This document shows, in pieces, positions 16,871 through 63,855 of a stretch of DNA of 64,000 bases; the first letter of the stretch is position 1; every line of letters starts with the position of its first letter. Source of the DNA: an uncultured Patescibacteria group bacterium (GTDB lineage: Bacteria; Patescibacteriota; Patescibacteriia; UBA2591; CALHIP01). The translations under genes and the position numbers were made by a program. The stretch is taken from positions 16,404 to 80,403 of the forward strand of contig CALHIP010000026.1 in the NCBI GenBank assembly GCA_938030745.1. Reading direction: 5' to 3'. The notes beneath the pieces were generated by a model. That model worked only from the letters and a program-made list of their open reading frames with translations. It was not told the DNA's origin and did not search any database.

Positions 16871-17584
16871 TTACTGTCTTTTAAAGAGAAAAGTTTGTTG
16901 AAAGATGGTTAAAATTAAATTGACTAACCAATAAAGAACTAAACCACTTGGTAAACCTAAGCTAATAACAAATGTAAAAATAGGCATCATTACCTTCATT
17001 TGTTTATTAAGAACTCCCATCACTGACTCATTTTCCTTTCTTTTTTCTTTTGGCATCTTGACTAATGATCTTTTTGTTTCAAACATTTTTATTTGAAAAT
17101 ATTGAAAAAGGCCAGTTAATAAAGCTAAAGAAAAATTTTTTTCAGCTAAATTAAACAATCCAAAAGCAACTAAATTAAGTTGTCCTGGGTTTTTTATAAA
17201 TGGATAAAGAGGTAAAGTTTGACTAAAAAGACCAGTTCTGAAAACTTGATAGACAGCAATAAGAATTGGTAATTGGATGATTAAAAAGAAGAAGGGAGAG
17301 AATGGATTAATTTTATAAGTTTTATAAAGCTGAATTGTTTCCTGAGCAAGTTTTACTTTATCATAAGAAAATTTTTTCTTGATTTCTTCTAATTTCGGTT
17401 GAAGTTCGGCTAAAGATTTTTGAACTCTAATTTGTGAAAGAGATAAAGGATATAAAATTAGTTTAACAAAGATTGTTAAGAAAATAATTGATAAACCTAA
17501 ATCATAAAAACCAATAGTTTGATAGAAAAAGATTAAAAGATTTAAAAGAGGTTGATAAAAAATGAGGTTAAAAATTTTAATCAT
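16871..17584 (-). CDS. yidC: Membrane protein insertase YidC (short, Gram-positive-type)
   Basis: YQTIGFYDLGLSIIFLTIFVKLILYPLS, an amphipathic helix, and C-terminal LPSGLVLYWLVNLILTIFQQ. Confidence 0.8.
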   Translation of the reverse strand: MIKIFNLIFYQPLLNLLIFFYQTIGFYDLGLSIIFLTIFVKLILYPLSLSQIRVQKSLAELQPKLEEIKKKFSYDKVKLAQETIQLYKTYKINPFSPFFFLIIQLPILIAVYQVFRTGLFSQTLPLYPFIKNPGQLNLVAFGLFNLAEKNFSLALLTGLFQYFQIKMFETKRSLVKMPKEKRKENESVMGVLNKQMKVMMPIFTFVISLGLPSGLVLYWLVNLILTIFQQTFLFKRQ

Positions 17585-20496
17585 AATAAAATTACTGAAG
17601 CAACTTTGTCTTTTTTATCTTTAAGTTTAATTAATTTAACGCCCTGAGAAACACGACCTAAAATTGGAATGCTTTTTAAAGAAATTCTTAAAATTTGTCC
17701 TAAAAGAGAAGCAATAATTAAATCACCTTTTAAAAATTCGGAAAAATTTTTTTCATCAACAAAGAATAATTTAACCAATTTTCCTGTTTTTTCTGTCAAA
17801 CGATGGATTTTAATACCAGAGCCACCCCTTTTTTGAGAACGGTAAAAAGAAAGAGGAGAAAGTTTGCCATAACCAAATTCAGTAATTGAAAAAATTTTTG
17901 CCTCAACGGATTTTTTCTTAGGTAAAACTTCTAAAGCTATTAATTCATCATCTTGGCTTAATTTTATTCCCCTTAAACCTTTTGCTTCTCTTGAAAGTTT
18001 TCTAATTTCTTTTTCTGAAAATCTAATACCTTGACCATTTCGACTAACAAGGATTATTTCATCTTCGCCGGTTGAAGGTTTAACTGAAATAAGAGAATCA
18101 TCTTTTTCCAAACCAATAACTACTAAACCACTTTTTCTTATTTTCTTCAAGTTTTCTATCTCTATTCTTTTAACCATTCCCTTTTTTGTTGCAATGATTA
18201 AAAATTTTTGTGATAATTCTGAAGAGAAATAATTTTTTGACGAAACAGCTAAAACCGATGTAATCTTTTCATCTGAATTAAGAGAGAAGAAATTGGCTAT
18301 CGCCTCACCTTTTGAGGTTTTACTTTTCTCAGGAATTTCATAAGTTTTTAATTTAAAAACTTTGCCAGAATTAGTAAAAAATAAAATTTCAGAAAGGGTT
18401 GAGGTAAAAATAAGATGAGATAAAAGATGGTTTTCTTTTGTCTTTAAAATAATTGTTCCTTTTCCTCCTCTTTCTTGAACGCGGAACTGTTCTGGCGAAA
18501 CTCTTTTGAGATAGCTGTCTTGAGTTATAACAACTATTGTTGGTTTATCAGAAATAAAATCTTCTTCTTTAAATTCTTCAACTACTGTTTTAACAATTTT
18601 TGTCCTTCTTTCATCACCATATTTCTTTTTTAACTCTATAAGATCTTCTTTAATTAAATCAAGAATTTTCTTTGGCTGAGCTAAAATCAGACTTAAATTT
18701 TCTTTTTTCTTTTTTAATTCTTCAAGTTCATCCTTAATCTTTTGCCTTTCTAATTTAGAAAGTTGCCAAAGTCTTAATTCTAAAATCGCATTGGTTTGAC
18801 TTTCAGTTAAATTTAGTTTTTCAATTAAACTAATTTTTGCTTTTTCTTTATCTTTTGATTCTTTAATAATCTTTATTACTAAAGAAAGATTAGCTAAAGC
18901 TTTTTTAAAACCTTCTAAAACATGAATTCTTTTAATAACCTTATCAAGTTCCCATTCGGTTCTTCTTTTAATAACATTCTGCCGATGGTTTATATATTCT
19001 TTTAAAATATCTTTAAGGGAAAGTGTCTTTACTTCTAAACCTTCAACGAGAGCTAAAAAATTAAAATAAAAAGATGTCTCAAGTGGAGTAAAATTAAAAA
19101 GATAGTTAAGAACCTTCTCTGGATGAGCCTCTTTTTTTAAATCAATAACAATCCTTATTCCTTCTTTATCAGAAAGATCGCGAATATTTTTAATTTCTAA
19201 GATTTTTTTCTCTTCAATTAGTTGGGCAATTTTTTCAAGAATAGTTCTTTTTTCTACTAAATAAGGAATTTCTTTAATAATAATTTGATTTATTGAATCT
19301 TTTTTGAAAATTTCAGTCTTTGCTCTAATTACTATTTTGCCTCGACCAGAACTATATAAATCTTTAAGAATTTGGCCTCCAAAAACTATTCCACCAGTTG
19401 GGAAATCTGGACCTAAAATGAAATTCATTAATTCCGAAATTTCTGCTTCTGGATGATCAATTAAATAAATCAAAGCATCACAGATCTCAGAAAGATTATG
19501 AGGAGGAATATTTGTTGCTACTCCAACAGCAATACCTGAAACACCATTTAATAAAAGAAGAGGAATTCTTGCTGGTAAAACAACTGGCTCTTTTCTTGTT
19601 CCATCATAATTAGGAATAAAATCAATTGTATTTTTCTCAATATCTTTCAACATTTCTTCACCAATTTCTGAAAGTCTAGCTTCTGTATAACGATAGGCAG
19701 CCGGTTTATCTCCATCAATTGAATTATGAACAAAAACTCCAGCTGATAAAGCAAAATTGTGCCATGGTTCAGTAGTTAAATCATAAACATCTTCTTTTTT
19801 AAAAAGAACTTTTGTTTTCGTTACTTTTTTTGTTGAAAAACCCATTAAAGAATCGCCAGGCTTTAAATCTTTAGCCTGTTTATAACTACCATCTTCAAGC
19901 ATAAAAAGATGATCTAATGTAGATTTAATCTTTTCTTTATTATCTAAAATAATTTCTATTATTCTTTCATTTTTTCGCGTCAATCTTGGATTTTTGATTT
20001 CAGAAATTTCAATTTTTTTAGTTTTATGATTAAAAGTGAATGTCTGATATTTTTTCCCTTTTTTATATTCTTCAATCAATTCTTTAAAACTTAAATCTCT
20101 TCCATCAGAAATTTTTACTTTTGTATCTTTTGTAAAACAACCGAAATTTCCTTGACCTTCAATTAATGGATATCTTAAAGAAAAATCTTGGGCCATTCTA
20201 GCTAAAGCATCATAAACTGCCATATCACCATGTGGATGATAACGAGCTAAAACAGAACCAATAATGGAAGCTGATTTTCTAAATTTAGCATTATGATGAA
20301 GCCCATCTTCAAAAGCAGCATATAAAATCCGACGCTGAACTGGTTTTAAACCATCTCTGACATCAGGCAAAGCTCTTGAAACAATAACACTCATTGCATA
20401 ATCTAAATATGAATCTTGCATCTCTTCACCAATAGCTCTTTCTTCTATTTTTTCTTTAATTCGCGATTTTGTTTCATTATTTTTTTTATTCTTCAT
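17581..20496 (-). CDS. gyrA: DNA gyrase subunit A, interrupted in frame by a mini-intein
   Basis: RALPDVRDGLKPVQRRILY…HPHGD…GQGNFG / intein / SIDGDKPAAYRYTEARL, followed by the standard GyrA body and a beta-pinwheel C-terminal domain. Confidence 0.9.
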   Translation of the reverse strand: MKNKKNNETKSRIKEKIEERAIGEEMQDSYLDYAMSVIVSRALPDVRDGLKPVQRRILYAAFEDGLHHNAKFRKSASIIGSVLARYHPHGDMAVYDALARMAQDFSLRYPLIEGQGNFGCFTKDTKVKISDGRDLSFKELIEEYKKGKKYQTFTFNHKTKKIEISEIKNPRLTRKNERIIEIILDNKEKIKSTLDHLFMLEDGSYKQAKDLKPGDSLMGFSTKKVTKTKVLFKKEDVYDLTTEPWHNFALSAGVFVHNSIDGDKPAAYRYTEARLSEIGEEMLKDIEKNTIDFIPNYDGTRKEPVVLPARIPLLLLNGVSGIAVGVATNIPPHNLSEICDALIYLIDHPEAEISELMNFILGPDFPTGGIVFGGQILKDLYSSGRGKIVIRAKTEIFKKDSINQIIIKEIPYLVEKRTILEKIAQLIEEKKILEIKNIRDLSDKEGIRIVIDLKKEAHPEKVLNYLFNFTPLETSFYFNFLALVEGLEVKTLSLKDILKEYINHRQNVIKRRTEWELDKVIKRIHVLEGFKKALANLSLVIKIIKESKDKEKAKISLIEKLNLTESQTNAILELRLWQLSKLERQKIKDELEELKKKKENLSLILAQPKKILDLIKEDLIELKKKYGDERRTKIVKTVVEEFKEEDFISDKPTIVVITQDSYLKRVSPEQFRVQERGGKGTIILKTKENHLLSHLIFTSTLSEILFFTNSGKVFKLKTYEIPEKSKTSKGEAIANFFSLNSDEKITSVLAVSSKNYFSSELSQKFLIIATKKGMVKRIEIENLKKIRKSGLVVIGLEKDDSLISVKPSTGEDEIILVSRNGQGIRFSEKEIRKLSREAKGLRGIKLSQDDELIALEVLPKKKSVEAKIFSITEFGYGKLSPLSFYRSQKRGGSGIKIHRLTEKTGKLVKLFFVDEKNFSEFLKGDLIIASLLGQILRISLKSIPILGRVSQGVKLIKLKDKKDKVASVILL
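19723..20139 (-). mobile_element. Mini-intein (139 aa, Hint domain only, no homing-endonuclease domain) within gyrA
   Basis: Starts with Cys (CFTKDTKV, block A), has TLDH (block B TxxH), and ends VFVHN immediately followed by Ser+1. Removing it restores the contiguous GyrA sequence GNFG-SIDGD. Confidence 0.8.
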
Positions 20497-59779: not shown

Positions 59780-60931
59780 ATGAAAAAAGGGATTTTAATT
59801 GCTTTTGGTGAATTGTTTTTAAAATCGCCTAATGTCCAAAAAATTTTAAAAAGAAAATTAATTTCTAATCTTTCTTCTTATTTTAAAAGAAAAAAACTTG
59901 ATTTTAAAATTTATCTTCAGAGAGAAAGAATCTTTGTTGAAACCTCAAAAATAAAAAAAGCATTAAAAATTGTTAAAAATATCTTTGGCATTTCTTTTTT
60001 TGCTGAAAGTTTATTTTTTGAAAAATTATCTTTAAAAGAAATTTCAGATTTTGTAGCTAAAAATTATAAAAATTGGATAAAAGAAAATGAGACATTTGCT
60101 ATTAGATTAAAAAAGGGAGGCGGAATAAAAGAATCAAGTCAAGAAATTATTGAAGAAATTGCTAGAGGAATAAAAAGAAAGGTTGATTTAAAAAGGCCAA
60201 AAAGAAAAATTTTTATTGAGGCAAGGAAGGAGGGTTGGTTTCTCTATTTTAAAAAGAAAAAAGCTCTTGGTGGATTACCAATAAGTTCTTCAGGAAAAGT
60301 TTTAACTTTAATTTCAGGAGGAATTGATTCTCCTGTTGCTTCTTTTTTAATGGCAAAAAGGGGAAGCGAAAATGTTTGGCTTCATTTTCATTCTTTTCCT
60401 TTAGTTTCAAATAAATCAATTGAGAAAATTAAAGAATTGGCAAAAATTTTTTTAAATTATCAACCCAATCTAAAAATTTATTTATTTCCTTTTTCAAAAA
60501 TTCAAATGGAAATTAAAACAAAAGTTTTACCAAAATACAGAATTTTACTTTATCGAAGAATAATGTTTAAAATTGCTCAAAAAATTGCTAAAAAAGAAAA
60601 TTGTTATGCTTTAGTAACTGGAGAAAGTCTAGGACAAGTAAGTTCTCAAACCCTGCCAAATATTGAAATTATTGAAAAAGTAGTTTCAATTCCAGTATTA
60701 AGACCTTTAATTGGTTTAGACAAAGAAGAAATAATAAAATTAGCAAAAAAAATTAAAACATTTGAAATCTCTATTAAACCACAGGAAGATTGTTGTACCC
60801 TTTTTACTCCAAAACATGCTTCCGCCAAAGGAAATCTAAGAAAAATAGAGGAAATAGAGAAAAAATTGAATTTAAAAAGATTAATTAATGATTCAATGAA
60901 AGAAATCGAGGTTTTACACTTTTTTAATTAA
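59780..60931 (+). CDS. thiI: tRNA 4-thiouridine synthase (THUMP + PP-loop)
   Basis: VLTLISGGIDSPVASFLMAKRG and the upstream THUMP region. Confidence 0.85.
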   Translation: MKKGILIAFGELFLKSPNVQKILKRKLISNLSSYFKRKKLDFKIYLQRERIFVETSKIKKALKIVKNIFGISFFAESLFFEKLSLKEISDFVAKNYKNWIKENETFAIRLKKGGGIKESSQEIIEEIARGIKRKVDLKRPKRKIFIEARKEGWFLYFKKKKALGGLPISSSGKVLTLISGGIDSPVASFLMAKRGSENVWLHFHSFPLVSNKSIEKIKELAKIFLNYQPNLKIYLFPFSKIQMEIKTKVLPKYRILLYRRIMFKIAQKIAKKENCYALVTGESLGQVSSQTLPNIEIIEKVVSIPVLRPLIGLDKEEIIKLAKKIKTFEISIKPQEDCCTLFTPKHASAKGNLRKIEEIEKKLNLKRLINDSMKEIEVLHFFN

Positions 60932-60971
60932 CCTTTTAAAAGTTTTCCACAGTCTAACTATTGATCTTTAT

Positions 60972-61013
60972 CTTATTGATATTAAAATCTAAATAAGAAT
61001 GATTATCAATAAG
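60972..61013 (+). promoter_or_regulatory. 10-bp perfect inverted repeat CTTATTGATA (22 nt) TATCAATAAG spanning the fur-like start codon; candidate Fur/PerR autoregulatory box
   Basis: Read directly. The right arm lies in codons 2-5 of the regulator gene. The AT-rich AATGATTATCAAT core resembles Fur/PerR boxes. Confidence 0.4.
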
Positions 61014-61376
61014 AAAGAGAGAATTACAAATCAAAAAAAGATTATTTTAGATTATTTAAAATCTACTAAGAATCATCCTTCAGCTGAAAAGGTTTATAAA
61101 GAAGTTAAGAAAAAATTGCCAAGAATAAGCCTAGGTACTGTCTATCGAATTTTAAAGAATTTAAAAGAAAAAGGAGAAATTTTAGAAATTTCAATTGAAG
61201 TCTCTCATTTTGATGGAGATATTTCTCCTCATGGTCATTTTATTTGTCAAAAGTGTAAAAAAATTTATGATGTTGAAGAAAAATATCCAGTTTTAAAACA
61301 AAAAAAATTAAAGGTCGGAGAAATTAAAAATTATCAAATTTATTTTTATGGCATCTGTAAAAAATGTAAAAAATAA
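60999..61376 (+). CDS. Fur-family metalloregulator (PerR-like given the peroxide-stress neighbourhood)
   Basis: Winged-helix N-terminus (RISLGTVYRILKNL), the HGHFIC and CQKC…CKKC zinc sites. Confidence 0.8.
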   Translation: MIINKKERITNQKKIILDYLKSTKNHPSAEKVYKEVKKKLPRISLGTVYRILKNLKEKGEILEISIEVSHFDGDISPHGHFICQKCKKIYDVEEKYPVLKQKKLKVGEIKNYQIYFYGICKKCKK

Positions 61377-61650
61377 AAAAAATTTTTGCTGGGATTGTAA
61401 AAAAGAAATTAAAATTAACAATGGAAAAATTGAAAATGGAAAAATGTTGATTTATGAAGAAGGAAATAAAAAAATTATTGTTTTTAAATGCCTAAATTGT
61501 TTTGCTAAAAGTCAAGAATTAAGAAATTATCAACCTTGTGAAGTTTATTCAAGAGTTGTTGGTTATTTAAGACCGGTTGGGCAATGGAATAAAGGAAAAC
61601 AACAAGAATTTAAAGAAAAAAAAGAATTTAAAATAAAGGTCGAAAATTAA
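61348..61650 (+). CDS. Small zinc-ribbon protein with NrdD C-terminal-like glycyl-radical motif (stand-alone)
   Basis: CWDC…CLNC followed by SRVVGYLRPVGQWNKGKQQEFKEKK. The anaerobic ribonucleotide reductase C-terminus has a Zn ribbon followed by the RV(C/V)GY glycine-radical loop, then RP…WN.GK..E. Confidence 0.5.
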   Translation: MASVKNVKNKKNFCWDCKKEIKINNGKIENGKMLIYEEGNKKIIVFKCLNCFAKSQELRNYQPCEVYSRVVGYLRPVGQWNKGKQQEFKEKKEFKIKVEN

Positions 61651-61671: not shown

Positions 61672-62235
61672 ATGAAGGATCCATTAACTGTTTCTGATCC
61701 AAAACCAGTTAAAAAAGGCTCAAAAACTTATGAAAATTTATGGAAAGCTTTTGCTGGAGAAGCTCAGGCAAGGAACAAATACACCTATTTTGCTAAAATT
61801 GCTAAAGAACAGGGATTGCATCATATTGCTGCTATTTTTGAAGAGACGGCTAATCATGAATTAGAACATGCAAAAATGATCTGGAAATTATTAGGCGAAT
61901 GGTCAGAGACTAAAGAGAATTTAAAAAAGGCAATTGAAGGAGAAAATTATGAACACACAAAAATGTATCCTGAATTTAAGAAAACAGCAAAAGAAGAGGG
62001 ATTTGACGATGCAGTAAAATTTTTTACAGAAGTAGCAGAGGTAGAAGAACAACATGAAAAAAGGTATAAAAGATTATTGGAGGAATTAGAAAAAGGGGAG
62101 GTTTTCAGAAAAAAGAAGAATGTAATGTGGGTCTGCCGAAATTGTGGTTATGTCCATTTTGGCAAAAAAGCACCAAAGGAATGTCCAAATTGCCGGCATC
62201 CTCAGAGTTATTTCGAGGTAAGGCTCCAGTACTAA
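61672..62235 (+). CDS. rbr: Rubrerythrin
   Basis: Ferritin-like di-iron ligands E…E..H in duplicate, plus a C-terminal rubredoxin CRNCGY…CPNC. Confidence 0.9.
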
Positions 62236-62236
62236 T

Positions 62237-62617
62237 ATGACTCAACAAAGACAAATCTATAAATGTAATATTTGTGGAAATATTGTTGAGGTCTTACATT
62301 CTGGAGTAGGCCAACTTATCTGTTGCGGTAAGCCGATGGAGCTTTTGGTTGGAAAGAATAAAGATATTGGCCAGGAAAAACATTTGCCAGTAATTGAAAA
62401 GACAGAAAAAGGAATAAAGATTAAAGTAGGTTCAATTCCTCATCCAATGGAAGAAAATCACTATATTGAATGGATTGAGGCAATAGTTGATGAAAAAACT
62501 TATCGTCATTTTTTAAAGCCAGGTGATCTACCAGAAGCTGAGTTTGAGATTAAAGGTGAGAAAATTTTCGCCAGAGAATACTGCAATCTTCACGGTTTGT
62601 GGGAAAATAAGGAATAA
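62237..62617 (+). CDS. dfx: Desulfoferrodoxin (2Fe superoxide reductase)
   Basis: Desulforedoxin-like CNICGN…CCGKPM, then an SOR domain with His/Cys ligands (…[13 protein letters not shown]…C.LHGLWE). Confidence 0.9.
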
Positions 62618-62687
62618 TTTTTGATTCACTCAAAAGATATCCACAGCCTCCTCTTGACCAGGTCTGTGGTTTTGCTAAATTTAAATA

Positions 62688-62704
62688 ACCCCCCTATAGG
62701 GGGT
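62688..62704 (+). promoter_or_regulatory. GC-rich palindrome ACCCCCC-TATA-GGGGGT immediately upstream of the csoR-like gene; candidate CsoR operator
   Basis: Read directly. It is the only G/C homopolymer palindrome in an AT-rich intergenic region. CsoR/RcnR operators are C/G-tract pseudo-palindromes. Confidence 0.5.
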
Positions 62705-62716
62705 AATAAATACAAT

Positions 62717-62986
62717 ATGAAAGAAAACTACAAAAAAGAGATTTTAAATCGAATGAATTACATTTCTGGACATTTGGAAGGAGTTAAAAGGATGATAAAG
62801 AAAGATAAATATTGTATCGATATTATTTTACAAAATGAGGCTATAATTTCAGCTTTAAAAAAGGTTAATGAGATGATTTTGGCAAACCATTTAAATACTT
62901 GCGTGACAACAGCTATCAAAAGCAAAAGCGAAAAGGAAAGAAAAAAGAAAATTAAAGAACTTTTGGAATTATTTAAAAACAAATGA
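62717..62986 (+). CDS. csoR: CsoR/RcnR-family metal-sensing transcriptional repressor
   Basis: ILNRMNYISGHLEGVKRMIKKDKYCIDIILQNEAIISALKKV is the DUF156 signature, with Cys and His at sensor positions. Start trimmed to MKENYKK. Confidence 0.75.
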   Translation: MKENYKKEILNRMNYISGHLEGVKRMIKKDKYCIDIILQNEAIISALKKVNEMILANHLNTCVTTAIKSKSEKERKKKIKELLELFKNK

Positions 62987-63855
62987 AAAAAAATTGTTGT
63001 TTTAAAAACGAAAAAAGTAAAGAAAAAGGATTTTTCATTGGACTTTTTTCTGGTATTTTACCTCATACTTTTTGTATTCTTTTTATTATTCTTTCGATCA
63101 TTGGAGCAACAACAGCAACAACTTTATTAAAACCTTTTCTTTTTAATCGTTATTTTTTCTATATTTTAATAGCAATATCTTTTCTCTTTGCCACCTTTTC
63201 AGCTATCTTTTATCTTAAAAGAAATAAAATTCTCTCATTTTCTGGAATTAAAAGAAAATGGAAATATCTTTCAATTCTTTATGGAACAACAATTTTTGTT
63301 AATTTATTGTTTTTTATGGTGATCTTTCCTTACTTGGCAAACTTAGATCGGACCCGACCTACAAAACTTTTTGAAGATAGTACTTTGTCCTCTCTCACTC
63401 TAAAAGTTCAAATTCCCTGTCCAGGTCACGCTCCATTGATTATCCAGGAACTCAAAAAAATCAATGGGATAGAAGGTGTAGAATTCAAATTTCCAAATTT
63501 ATTTCAAATAAAATTTAATCCCAAAAGAATAGACAAATTAGAGATACTTTCTTTGAAAATTTTTCAAACTTTTAAGGTAGAGATGATCAAAGAGAACGAC
63601 TCTTTAGAAAGAGAGAAAATTTTATTCCAGCTTTATTCAGCAATTGAGAAAGCTAAGAAAGAAGGAAAATATAAATGCTGTATAGAGCCTCCTTGCACAA
63701 TGTGTTATTTAGGTAATTGGATATTTGAAGACGGAGTTTGTGATTGCGAGGAAATGATTAAAAAAGGTGACTTAAGTAAAGTTTGTCCTCAATGCCTTAA
63801 AGGTATAAAAGAAGGAAAATGTAAATCAGGATTGGGCGTTTGCCCGGCTTTATAA
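62983..63855 (+). CDS. Membrane protein with HMA-like domain and Cys-rich C-terminus (putative copper-handling protein)
   Basis: N-terminal CC, 3-4 TM helices, an HMA-like fold segment (LTLKVQIPCPGHAPLIIQELKKINGIEGVEF), and a C-terminal cluster of about 12 Cys (KCCIEPPCTMC…CDCEE…CPQC…CKSGLGVCP). Confidence 0.45.
   Translation: MKKNCCFKNEKSKEKGFFIGLFSGILPHTFCILFIILSIIGATTATTLLKPFLFNRYFFYILIAISFLFATFSAIFYLKRNKILSFSGIKRKWKYLSILYGTTIFVNLLFFMVIFPYLANLDRTRPTKLFEDSTLSSLTLKVQIPCPGHAPLIIQELKKINGIEGVEFKFPNLFQIKFNPKRIDKLEILSLKIFQTFKVEMIKENDSLEREKILFQLYSAIEKAKKEGKYKCCIEPPCTMCYLGNWIFEDGVCDCEEMIKKGDLSKVCPQCLKGIKEGKCKSGLGVCPAL

Follow-up and report, generated by a model that had tools for sequence, protein, structure and literature searches.

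Glycyl-radical enzymes are cleaved irreversibly by O2 at their radical glycine, as established for NrdD and pyruvate formate-lyase (PFL) of E. coli. For PFL, autonomous glycyl radical cofactors that serve as spare parts have been described, namely GrcA (YfiD) of E. coli and Y06I of phage T4. GrcA is a small, stand-alone protein that is essentially the C-terminal glycyl-radical domain (GRD) of the large enzyme; it has a disordered N-terminus and a link to oxygen stress, and it coexists with a parent enzyme bearing its own GRD. According to the proposed logic, the activase would radicalise the free domain, which would then replace the domain lost by O2 cleavage. In a 2026 review, formate-lyases are named as the only enzymes with known spare-part proteins, and the existence of such proteins for other glycyl-radical enzymes is called undetermined, a point that had already been made in 2021. 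In the literature that we searched, no earlier description of a spare-part protein for NrdD was found.

The GRD of full-length NrdD, for which structures have been solved from phage T4 and Thermotoga maritima (4coi, 4u3e), consists of a zinc ribbon, an RVxGY hairpin and a terminal helix. In PerR regulons of anaerobes, for instance those of clostridia, rubrerythrin and desulfoferrodoxin are controlled by a Fur-family peroxide repressor. We know of no description of a ribonucleotide reductase (RNR) radical domain within a PerR-type operon. A separate C-terminal chain has been described for the split class II RNR NrdJa/NrdJb, where the zinc-finger-containing part is a polypeptide of its own (PMC9669993). 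That enzyme is B12-dependent and its tail serves re-reduction, whereas radical storage is proposed for the protein described here.

This protein of 100 residues, here called the mini-protein, is encoded in a 64-kb stretch of DNA from an uncultured Patescibacteria group bacterium (the window; Table 1). A sequence-only reading of the window had claimed an ORF that starts inside the end of a fur-like gene and carries two CxxC pairs followed by a glycyl-radical loop. Both observations hold. The ORF is real, starts with ATG and overlaps the final 29 nt of the Fur-family gene. The cysteine pairs are Cys14/Cys17 and Cys48/Cys51, with a further cysteine at position 64, and residues 68-73 (SRVVGY) count as an RVxGY motif with Gly72 as the predicted radical site.

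Table 1. Coordinates of the mini-protein gene, its predicted functional sites, its neighbours and the promoter-like region, given as positions in the window
Feature	Residues	Position	Strand	Basis or remark
Promoter-like region of operon		60943-60988	+	Consensus scan; function inferred
TTTTCCACAG element		60943-60952	+	Consensus match only
-35-like TTGATC		60961-60966	+	Consensus match only
-10-like TAAAAT		60983-60988	+	Consensus match; ~10 nt before perR-like ATG
Fur-family regulator, most likely PerR-like		60999-61376	+	Pfam FUR E=2.5e-23
Mini-protein gene, NrdD-type GRD		61348-61650	+	ATG start, 100 aa
First zinc-ligand pair CWDC, Cys14/Cys17	14-17	61387-61398	+	Predicted ligands
Second zinc-ligand pair CLNC, Cys48/Cys51	48-51	61489-61500	+	Predicted ligands
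Glycyl-radical motif SRVVGYLRPVGQWNKGKQQEF	68-88	61549-61611	+	Predicted radical site Gly72
Gly72 codon		61561-61563	+	Predicted radical site
Rubrerythrin (peroxide reductase)		61672-62235	+	RuberyRbr 226 bits, cutoff 200; Pfam Rubrerythrin and RUBY_RBDX
Desulfoferrodoxin (superoxide reductase), final cluster gene		62237-62617	+	dfx_rbo 205 bits, cutoff 147

The supposed likeness to the C-terminus of NrdD proved to be significant. The Pfam model NRDD (PF13597) matched the mini-protein with E=2.2e-11 and 43.6 bits, above the gathering score of 26.2, and residues 17-94 aligned to profile positions 493-562 of 562, which is the C-terminal end only. The NCBIfam NrdD models (TIGR02487) likewise matched over their last ~50 positions only, and the whole-protein score of 37 bits, where the cutoff is 326, indicates that this is not a full NrdD. 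The ten-stranded alpha/beta barrel with the finger-loop cysteine, which makes up ~550-700 aa of NrdD, is absent, while a four-ligand zinc ribbon of the NrdD type is present, as predicted from the conserved cysteines. A stretch of 34 residues is 88-91% identical to the C-termini of full-length Patescibacteria NrdDs, in which the Cys48/Cys51 pair corresponds to a CPKC before the glycine motif. The family profile also aligned the glycine motif to RIVGY of the T. maritima NrdD chains 4coi and 4u3e; this match is weak (E=0.18) because the common stretch comprises only 32 residues. A phmmer search of the PDB with the single mini-protein sequence returned nothing relevant. Judged from its sequence, the ORF is thus an autonomous GRD of the class III RNR type, with zinc ribbon, Gly hairpin and terminal helix, and without the barrel. 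In contrast to full-length NrdD it is a separate polypeptide, and it differs from the Patescibacteria NrdDs in its first zinc pair, which is C(H/W)DC in the mini-protein family and CP.HG in the NrdDs, and in a ~30-residue beta-hairpin insert between the Cys pairs.

Like GrcA, the mini-protein is a small, stand-alone GRD with a disordered N-terminus, which in this case is Lys-rich, and with a connection to oxygen stress. However, the two are not homologous at the family level: the Pfam scan gave no match to PF01228 (Gly_radical) at E<=1, the NCBIfam scan gave none to the GrcA model at E<=10, and the mini-protein carries an NrdD-type GRD with a four-Cys zinc ribbon. The analogy would therefore be functional only, and the presumed partners are class III RNR and NrdG instead of PFL and its activase PFL-AE. 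In the AF2 monomer model, which reached a moderate pLDDT of 72, strands 65-68 and 73-76 flank Gly72, a helix spans residues 77-90, and beta-hairpins lie at the positions of the zinc-ligand cysteines. When this model was searched against the PDB with Foldseek, no significant match was obtained (best hits were PARP zinc fingers, E~0.5), which says little for or against the assignment because an isolated GRD has no compact fold.

The mini-protein belongs to a large family of stand-alone proteins of about 80-170 aa. We found 650 stand-alone homologs, and every one of the best 120 has a length of 91-117 aa; among representatives of 50%-identity clusters, the top 150 are without exception short as well (42-159 aa). 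Most of the family occurs in Patescibacteria, with some members in Desulfobacterota, Syntrophales and one ANME-1 archaeon. In the databases these proteins are labelled "hypothetical protein", "predicted metal-binding protein" or, misleadingly, "anaerobic ribonucleoside-triphosphate reductase". The cysteines of both pairs (C14, C17, C48 and C51) and D16 are invariant in 120/120 close homologs and in alignment A1, as are G72, Y73, R75, P76, W80 and K84. The radical glycine, whose conservation had been proposed as a test, is also kept in 147 of the 150 cluster representatives. The first pair reads CHDC in most homologs and most commonly among the representatives, and CWDC in the window.

In the window the gene is placed among genes for defence against reactive oxygen species (ROS), with the rubrerythrin gene following after 21 nt. 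The cluster had been read as PerR-rubrerythrin-SOR. Rubrerythrin and superoxide reductase are both above the cutoffs of their models, and the latter matches Desulfoferrod_N and Desulfoferrodox in Pfam. For the regulator, the Fur family stands but PerR identity stays below the cutoffs: PerR models gave the two best NCBIfam scores (106 and 104 bits; Fur reached 55 bits), and every regulator score fell short of the equivalog cutoffs of 180-200. The cluster agrees with the PerR regulons of anaerobes in its genes and their order. As had been suggested, the small ORF is conserved at this place: 27/35 members of the window's clade adjoin a Fur/PerR-like or ROS-defence gene, the stress neighbours being Rbr, SOR, Fe/Mn-SOD, 1-Cys peroxiredoxin, mini-rubrerythrin and hemerythrin. 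Two family members from Desulfobacterota/Syntrophales also adjoin rubrerythrin. In nine related loci rubrerythrin is found at +1 of the mini-protein gene, and desulfoferrodoxin is conserved at +2 or +3. The stop/start overlap with the Fur-family gene recurs in loci L001, L002, L007, L011-L013, L087 and others. A Fur-GRD fusion by frameshift was considered and rejected, as the mini-protein gene occurs without an adjacent Fur gene in L005 and with an intervening gene in L003.

Upstream of the Fur-family gene, most related loci show the same layout as the window, with TT[A/T]TCCACA followed by TTGAC(A) and TAAAAT. Many related loci have AT-rich palindromes such as TAATAATTATTA in the interval from the -10 element to the ATG, and the short leader of the window itself showed no clear Fur/PerR 7-1-7 inverted repeat. 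Because the PerR score is below the cutoffs and a clear 7-1-7 box was not seen, induction by stress is deduced from gene order. The placement of the TTWTCCACA-like element upstream of the Fur-family gene is itself conserved. We did not adopt a DnaA-box reading of this element. The window contains TTWTCCACA 5 times where 1.95 are expected, a number reached in 5/100 shuffles, and TCCACA-N(3-14)-TTGA only twice, which 42/100 shuffles also reach. The Rfam scan of the window returned only two tRNAs.

No nrdD adjoins the mini-protein gene in the window, and the nrdD body and nrdG are absent throughout its 64 kb, in agreement with the earlier remark that the ORF is preceded by no large NrdD body. The ten largest ORFs do not include an NrdD, and NrdD and NrdG HMMs made for this purpose match nothing else in the window. 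We therefore looked for full-length nrdD in relatives with the same operon, as the sequence-only reading had advised. Two near-complete related genomes contain the mini-protein gene in the stress operon and an intact nrdD elsewhere; in one of them, nrdG was seen next to nrdD. For instance, contig Ga0527077_0027 (695 kb) has the gene order FUR, mini, AhpC, x, Rbr, SOR and, ~580 kb from this locus, the order NrdD, NrdG, SAM synthetase, where NrdD has 705 aa and its own CEVYSRIVGYY tail. Both loci are also present in Ga0527077_0019 (796 kb). Coexistence with a parent enzyme that bears its own GRD, as for GrcA, is thus seen in these relatives. Moreover, among close NrdD homologs 690 aa or longer, 113/113 have retained a Gly motif of their own. 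The mini-proteins of these relatives are ~68% identical to that of the window, and by extrapolation the window organism would also have an intact nrdD.

A second genomic context was found in the family, also different from that of GrcA. Of 94 stand-alone members, 26 have nrdD immediately on one side and nrdG on the other, and the gene order is NrdR, NrdD, mini, NrdG or FtsZ, NrdD, mini, NrdG; the activase of these loci is TIGR02495 NrdG2, above cutoff. Here the mini-protein gene is co-transcribed with nrdD, presumably under NrdR, which is as suitable for a constitutive partner as for an emergency spare. In 17 of the inspected loci NrdD keeps its own glycine motif. Seven NrdDs are without it (L027, L039, L046, L051, L055, L057 and L131), each with a mini-protein gene immediately downstream, so that the mini-protein is the only GRD at those loci. 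The six C-termini of Gly-less NrdDs that were inspected all end just after the second CxxC. These natural NrdDs resemble an O2-cleaved NrdD, and their pairing with the mini-protein implies that the latter may function in trans. It speaks against docking that the cleaved enzyme would retain its own zinc ribbon and the mini-protein would bring a second one, although the truncated natural NrdDs retain theirs as well. In the 17 loci the GRD of the mini-protein is 87% identical to the tail of its own NrdD, compared to 76% for the tails of other species, and in 12/17 loci no other NrdD matches it better than its own. At L095 the two are 100% identical in protein and 86% in nucleotides, which points to a shared structural partner. 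The co-variation extends through the C-terminal helix, beyond the activase-facing Gly loop.

We consider it moderately probable that the mini-protein is a GrcA-like spare part for NrdD, and comparative genomics supports this function well. The organism's NrdG would abstract the C-alpha hydrogen of Gly72 on the free mini-protein, and the activated protein would dock into a NrdD barrel whose own C-terminal Gly loop had been removed by O2. Docking would restore thiyl-radical generation and hence dNTP synthesis, without the ~700-aa enzyme having to be made again. Because of the gene's position in a PerR-like/rubrerythrin/superoxide-reductase operon, exposure to oxygen or peroxide would lead to joint production of the spare part and the ROS defences. 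That NrdG installs the radical, that the mini-protein docks to damaged NrdD and that PerR is in control is what we infer from these comparisons, and the mechanism as a whole is applied to the window organism in the same conditional sense.

Other explanations have to be weighed against this. That the mini-protein is a decaying remnant of a degraded nrdD, as the sequence-only reading had offered as its alternative, or a spurious ORF, might be suspected from the missing NrdD body and from the overlap with the upstream gene, but we consider this as good as refuted. The zinc cysteines and the radical glycine are essentially invariant, therefore the mini-protein is no decayed nrdD; its start Met is invariant too, its synteny is conserved, its many homologs are stand-alone and short among the best cluster representatives, and related genomes have an intact nrdD elsewhere. 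The seven truncated NrdDs with their mini-proteins, which parallel the NrdJa/NrdJb split, raise the question whether the mini-protein is an obligate small subunit and the NrdD of the window organism has no Gly loop of its own. Exactly such a split is seen at these GTDB/metagenome loci, and the window's own nrdD is not among the genes of the window. However, every split case has the mini-protein gene directly after nrdD and none is in a PerR operon, while the inspected PerR-type genomes have an intact NrdD tail, as do the 113 NrdDs closest to that lineage. An obligate subunit in the window organism is consequently very unlikely, and a split gene was rejected for this lineage, in which, unlike NrdJa/NrdJb, the parent NrdD of the relatives is unsplit.

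The co-operonic arrangement with nrdD and nrdG at 26 loci would also suit a free GRD that is a routine, constitutive radical carrier or activation adaptor, activated by NrdG off the enzyme and able to dock to any NrdD. Such a protein would not specifically repair damage, and its placement in the PerR operon would merely boost supply. That seven NrdDs have given up their Gly loop is consistent with this, and GrcA is reported to restore inactive full-length PFL in vivo. We nevertheless regard a routine role as unlikely for the window lineage, in which every NrdD seen (113/113) keeps a complete, conserved GRD that would be superfluous if the free domain were normally used, and in which the mini-protein gene has moved from the nrd locus to a stress operon. 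This stress context, together with a small, cheap protein that carries the full activase recognition motif, would equally fit a decoy, regulator or sacrificial radical sink that never docks into NrdD but competes for NrdG or reacts with O2, and thereby shields NrdD, limits SAM use or signals oxygen. Against this, the Gly-less natural NrdDs need a catalytically competent GRD in trans, and co-variation with the own NrdD tail reaches past the Gly loop into the C-terminal helix. A role of this kind is more doubtful still than that of an obligate subunit.

Our preferred explanation, a spare part for NrdD, makes this family a concrete candidate for such a protein in an essential enzyme of anaerobic DNA-precursor synthesis, and it comes with two natural controls: NrdDs that rely on the mini-protein for their radical loop, and a gene relocated to an oxidative-stress operon. 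Much more tentatively, class III RNR in these lineages could be a two-component, modular enzyme whose glycyl-radical cartridge is diffusible and can be exchanged. The cartridge would be charged by NrdG off the enzyme, would fit cleaved, unactivated or tail-less NrdD and would be supplied at a level set by a peroxide-sensing regulator. If this rather doubtful extension were true, a glycyl-radical enzyme other than the formate-lyases would for the first time have a repair and exchange system, and the mini-protein would be a minimal radical-carrying protein useful for studies of activase recognition. Replacing a 100-aa tail is far cheaper than replacing a 700-aa enzyme, and such a system, if true, would help to account for the survival of the ultra-small Patescibacteria, with their poor biosynthetic capacity, through oxic/anoxic fluctuations.

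The ORF of 100 aa, whose first 29 nt overlap the 3′ end of the Fur-family gene, was recognised by the Pfam NRDD model (E = 2.2e-11; 43.6 bits, gathering score 26.2), in an alignment limited to profile positions 493-562 of 562. The NCBIfam NrdD models matched with only their last ~50 positions, and the whole-protein score of 37 bits lies far below the 326-bit cutoff, so that the mini-protein is not an NrdD (class III ribonucleotide reductase) by the whole-protein definition. Within the 64-kb window (GC ~28%) neither an nrdD body nor nrdG, the gene of its activase, was found. In an AF2 model (pLDDT 72) hairpins make up the zinc ribbon, Gly72 sits at the tip of a beta-hairpin (strands 65-68 and 73-76), and a C-terminal helix (77-90) follows; residues 1-9 are disordered. 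The sequence-only reading had described a stand-alone NrdD-type C-terminus amid peroxide and superoxide defence genes, and the ORF coordinates, motifs, NRDD match, neighbours and missing nrdD body show this description to be accurate.

Features of the window around the mini-protein gene, and gyrA
Feature	Coordinates	Strand	Details
GyrA gene	17581-20496	-	intein (PF14890 Intein_splicing and PT-HINT)
ThiI-like tRNA sulfurtransferase gene	59780-60931		directly 5′ of perR-like gene
perR-like promoter	60943-60964		element 8-9 nt 5′ of -35-like TTGA
Fur-family (perR-like) gene	60999-61376		best matches are PerR models (106 and 104 bits; Fur model, 55), all below equivalog cutoffs (NCBIfam)
Mini-protein gene	61348-61650	+	ATG start; CWDC (residues 14-17), CLNC (48-51), Cys64, SRVVGYLRPVGQWNKGKQQEF (68-88)
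Rubrerythrin gene	61672-62235		downstream of mini gene; above NCBIfam cutoff
Desulfoferrodoxin gene	62237-62617		downstream of mini gene; above NCBIfam cutoff
CsoR-like ORF	62621-62986		listed TTG start at 62621
csoR-like promoter	62637-62657		same element and spacing
Region before ATG at 62717	62688-62717		promoter-like TTGACC/TAAATT and palindrome
Membrane protein gene	62983-63855		3′ of CsoR-like gene; 290 aa

The ThiI-like gene keeps its place in several related loci (e.g. L003, L004 and L007). Most related loci (L001, L007, L011, L013, L087, L091, L099, L105 and L111) conserve the promoter element, (T)TATCCACAG or TTTTCCACAG, 5′ of their Fur-family gene; it is similar to a DnaA box (TTATCCACA), but is no more frequent in the window than expected by chance. 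The CsoR-like ORF has a TTG start listed, yet its Pfam domain begins only at residue 38. The true start is probably the ATG at 62717, and the GC-rich palindrome CCCCCTATAGGGGG preceding it is probably a CsoR operator, in which case csoR would form a transcription unit apart from the perR-mini-rbr-dfx cluster. The multi-pass membrane protein encoded 3′ of it, which has a Cys-rich C-terminal domain with several CxxC motifs and no significant Pfam match, may act together with CsoR in the handling of metal (copper).

Homologues of the mini-protein were sought among 5.8 billion proteins, which yielded 650 matches. Among the best 120 every protein is 91-117 aa long and shares 55-80% identity with that of the window; the source names given for them are Patescibacteria, Parcubacteria and Nealsonbacteria. 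Family alignments show little or no variation at Met1, Cys14, Asp16, Cys17, Cys48, Cys51, Cys64, Gly72, Tyr73, Arg75, Pro76, Trp80 and Lys84. The Arg before the radical glycine has a sole exception in the 120 homologues, P0010 (L001, 10001-10297), which reads SKVVGY instead of SRVVGY. When 1.84 billion cluster representatives were searched with a profile, 4049 matches were obtained (513 at E<=1e-10). The top 150 range from 42 to 159 aa, and 147 of them retain the glycine. This large family of short proteins with conserved zinc-ligand cysteines and glycine rules out the other possibility raised from the sequence, a decayed remnant of nrdD.

To compare contexts, 166 loci were fetched, among them loci of GTDB species genomes and JGI metagenomes; ORFs were called and clustered, and clusters were named by Pfam and NCBIfam. 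The 94 stand-alone members fall into three groups: the window's clade (n=35), an nrd-adjacent group (n=26) and others (n=33). In the window's clade a Fur-family gene lies at -1 or -2 in 18/35, mostly with overlapping stop and start as in the window, and at least one ROS-defence gene (rubrerythrin, desulfoferrodoxin, Fe/Mn-SOD, 1-Cys peroxiredoxin, 93-aa mini-rubrerythrin, hemerythrin/DUF438, DUF1858 or glutaredoxin-like membrane protein) lies within three genes in 23/35. Either or both were found for 27 of the 35 members, and the small ORF is thus conserved beside perR/rbr-type genes. Some PerR-type operons (L003/L004, 9750-10004; L089, L008) have the mini gene interspersed with small genes of the DUF1858 and hemerythrin/DUF438 families, which are often associated with iron-centre or redox sensing. 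The third group (107-166 aa; Desulfobacterota and Syntrophales loci L016-L036, L045, L070 and L114-L126, and one Methanophagales MAG, L029) occurs in varied contexts and is marked by CHDC...CxxCF...CEVYSRVVGYLRPV and an additional N-terminal helix (e.g. MTIQRLHELFDENP...); rubrerythrin adjoins the mini gene in two of its loci, L032 and L070.

In the nrd-adjacent group the mini gene lies directly 3′ of nrdD and 5′ of a radical-SAM gene scoring above the cutoff for NrdG2 (TIGR02495). The order is NrdR/NrdD/mini/NrdG in Moranbacteria-like genomes and FtsZ/NrdD/mini/NrdG/x/ComEC in Minisyncoccales and Paceibacterota. Seven Patescibacteria NrdDs (L027, L039, L046, L051, L055, L057 and L131) lack the Gly motif, and in the six with inspected C-termini the chain terminates directly behind the zinc ribbon's second CxxC. 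At these loci the mini gene, 25-140 nt downstream and followed by nrdG, encodes the sole glycyl-radical domain. Such loci represent a naturally split class III reductase, which appears to be undescribed so far and is paralleled by the split class II enzyme NrdJa/NrdJb (PMC9669993). The natural tail-less NrdDs resemble the O2-cleaved enzyme, and their pairing with the mini-protein implies that it acts in trans.

Another 17 nrd-adjacent NrdDs retain their own tail (...CPKC-x6-EVYSRVVGY...). Here the radical domain of the mini-protein shows a mean identity of 0.87 to its own NrdD tail, compared with 0.76 to other species' tails or other mini-proteins; the own tail is the best or co-best match in 12/17 loci, and the variable residue of WN[E/A/K/G]GK is shared in 15/17 pairs. 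In L095 the two domains are 100% identical as protein and 86% as DNA (identical codons 19/31), which points to selection on a shared fit, presumably to one barrel and one activase, rather than recent gene conversion alone. Conversion between mini gene and nrdD tail also occurs, as the L110 pair (98% nucleotide identity) shows.

NrdDs of the window's relatives were searched with the low-GC Patescibacteria NrdD of L142, the matches were paired with mini-protein contigs of equal length, and two mini/NrdD pairs were then verified by look-up. JGI contig Ga0527077_0027 (695,565 bp) carries FUR/mini P0010/AhpC/x/Rbr/SOR at 587.7-608.0 kb and NrdD P0288/NrdG/SAM synthetase at 4.8-18.9 kb; P0288 (705 aa, ATP-cone and NRDD) ends in ...PCEVYSRIVGYYRPVQQWNLGKQQEFKQRKEFKIK. 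Contig Ga0527077_0019 (795,996 bp; L168) carries FUR/mini P0407/AhpC/x/Rbr/SOR at about 161-169 kb and FtsA/FtsZ/NrdD P0271/ComEC at about 562-572 kb, where P0271 contains an intein and keeps a Gly motif of its own. A candidate third pair is formed by a mini gene and an nrdD on contigs of one length, 459,396 bp. Full-length nrdD, which the sequence-only reading had proposed to look for, occurs in the two verified genomes with the same operon. Inteins are also present in the close Patescibacteria NrdDs P0272, P0276, P0277 and L142. All 113 NrdD homologues of at least 690 aa among the matches to the L142 protein retain their own Gly motif. Since the stress-operon mini gene coexists with intact NrdD in these relatives, the mini-protein of the window's lineage would be a second, redundant radical domain, hence "spare". 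The FtsZ/NrdD/.../ComEC frame of L168 is that of the nrd-adjacent group and is common to L014, L015, L095, L102 and L110. In some genomes nrdD and comEC flank the mini gene and nrdG; both are missing from this place where the mini gene is in the PerR-like operon. This shared frame suggests that both genes left the nrd locus and that the mini gene landed in the stress operon.

O2 cuts glycyl-radical enzymes at the radical glycine, and GrcA/YfiD, radicalised by PFL-AE, substitutes for the cleaved domain of pyruvate formate-lyase (PFL); spare parts have been validated for PFL only, and whether other glycyl-radical enzymes have them is left open (2021 JBC paper; 2026 Biochemistry review). In its function the mini-protein would be a counterpart of GrcA, but it falls outside that family: PF01228 does not match it, and its radical domain is the zinc-ribbon kind of NrdD. 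Open-access papers and bioRxiv yielded no account of an NrdD radical domain that stands alone. The mini-protein is almost certainly an autonomous NrdD-type glycyl-radical domain working with NrdD and NrdG, and we lean towards a spare-part mechanism. NrdG would place the radical on Gly72 of the free mini-protein, which would then dock into an NrdD that has lost its loop by cleavage, beside the retained zinc ribbon. Expression from the PerR-like operon, with PerR identity and operator both putative, would tie the supply of the mini-protein to oxidative stress.
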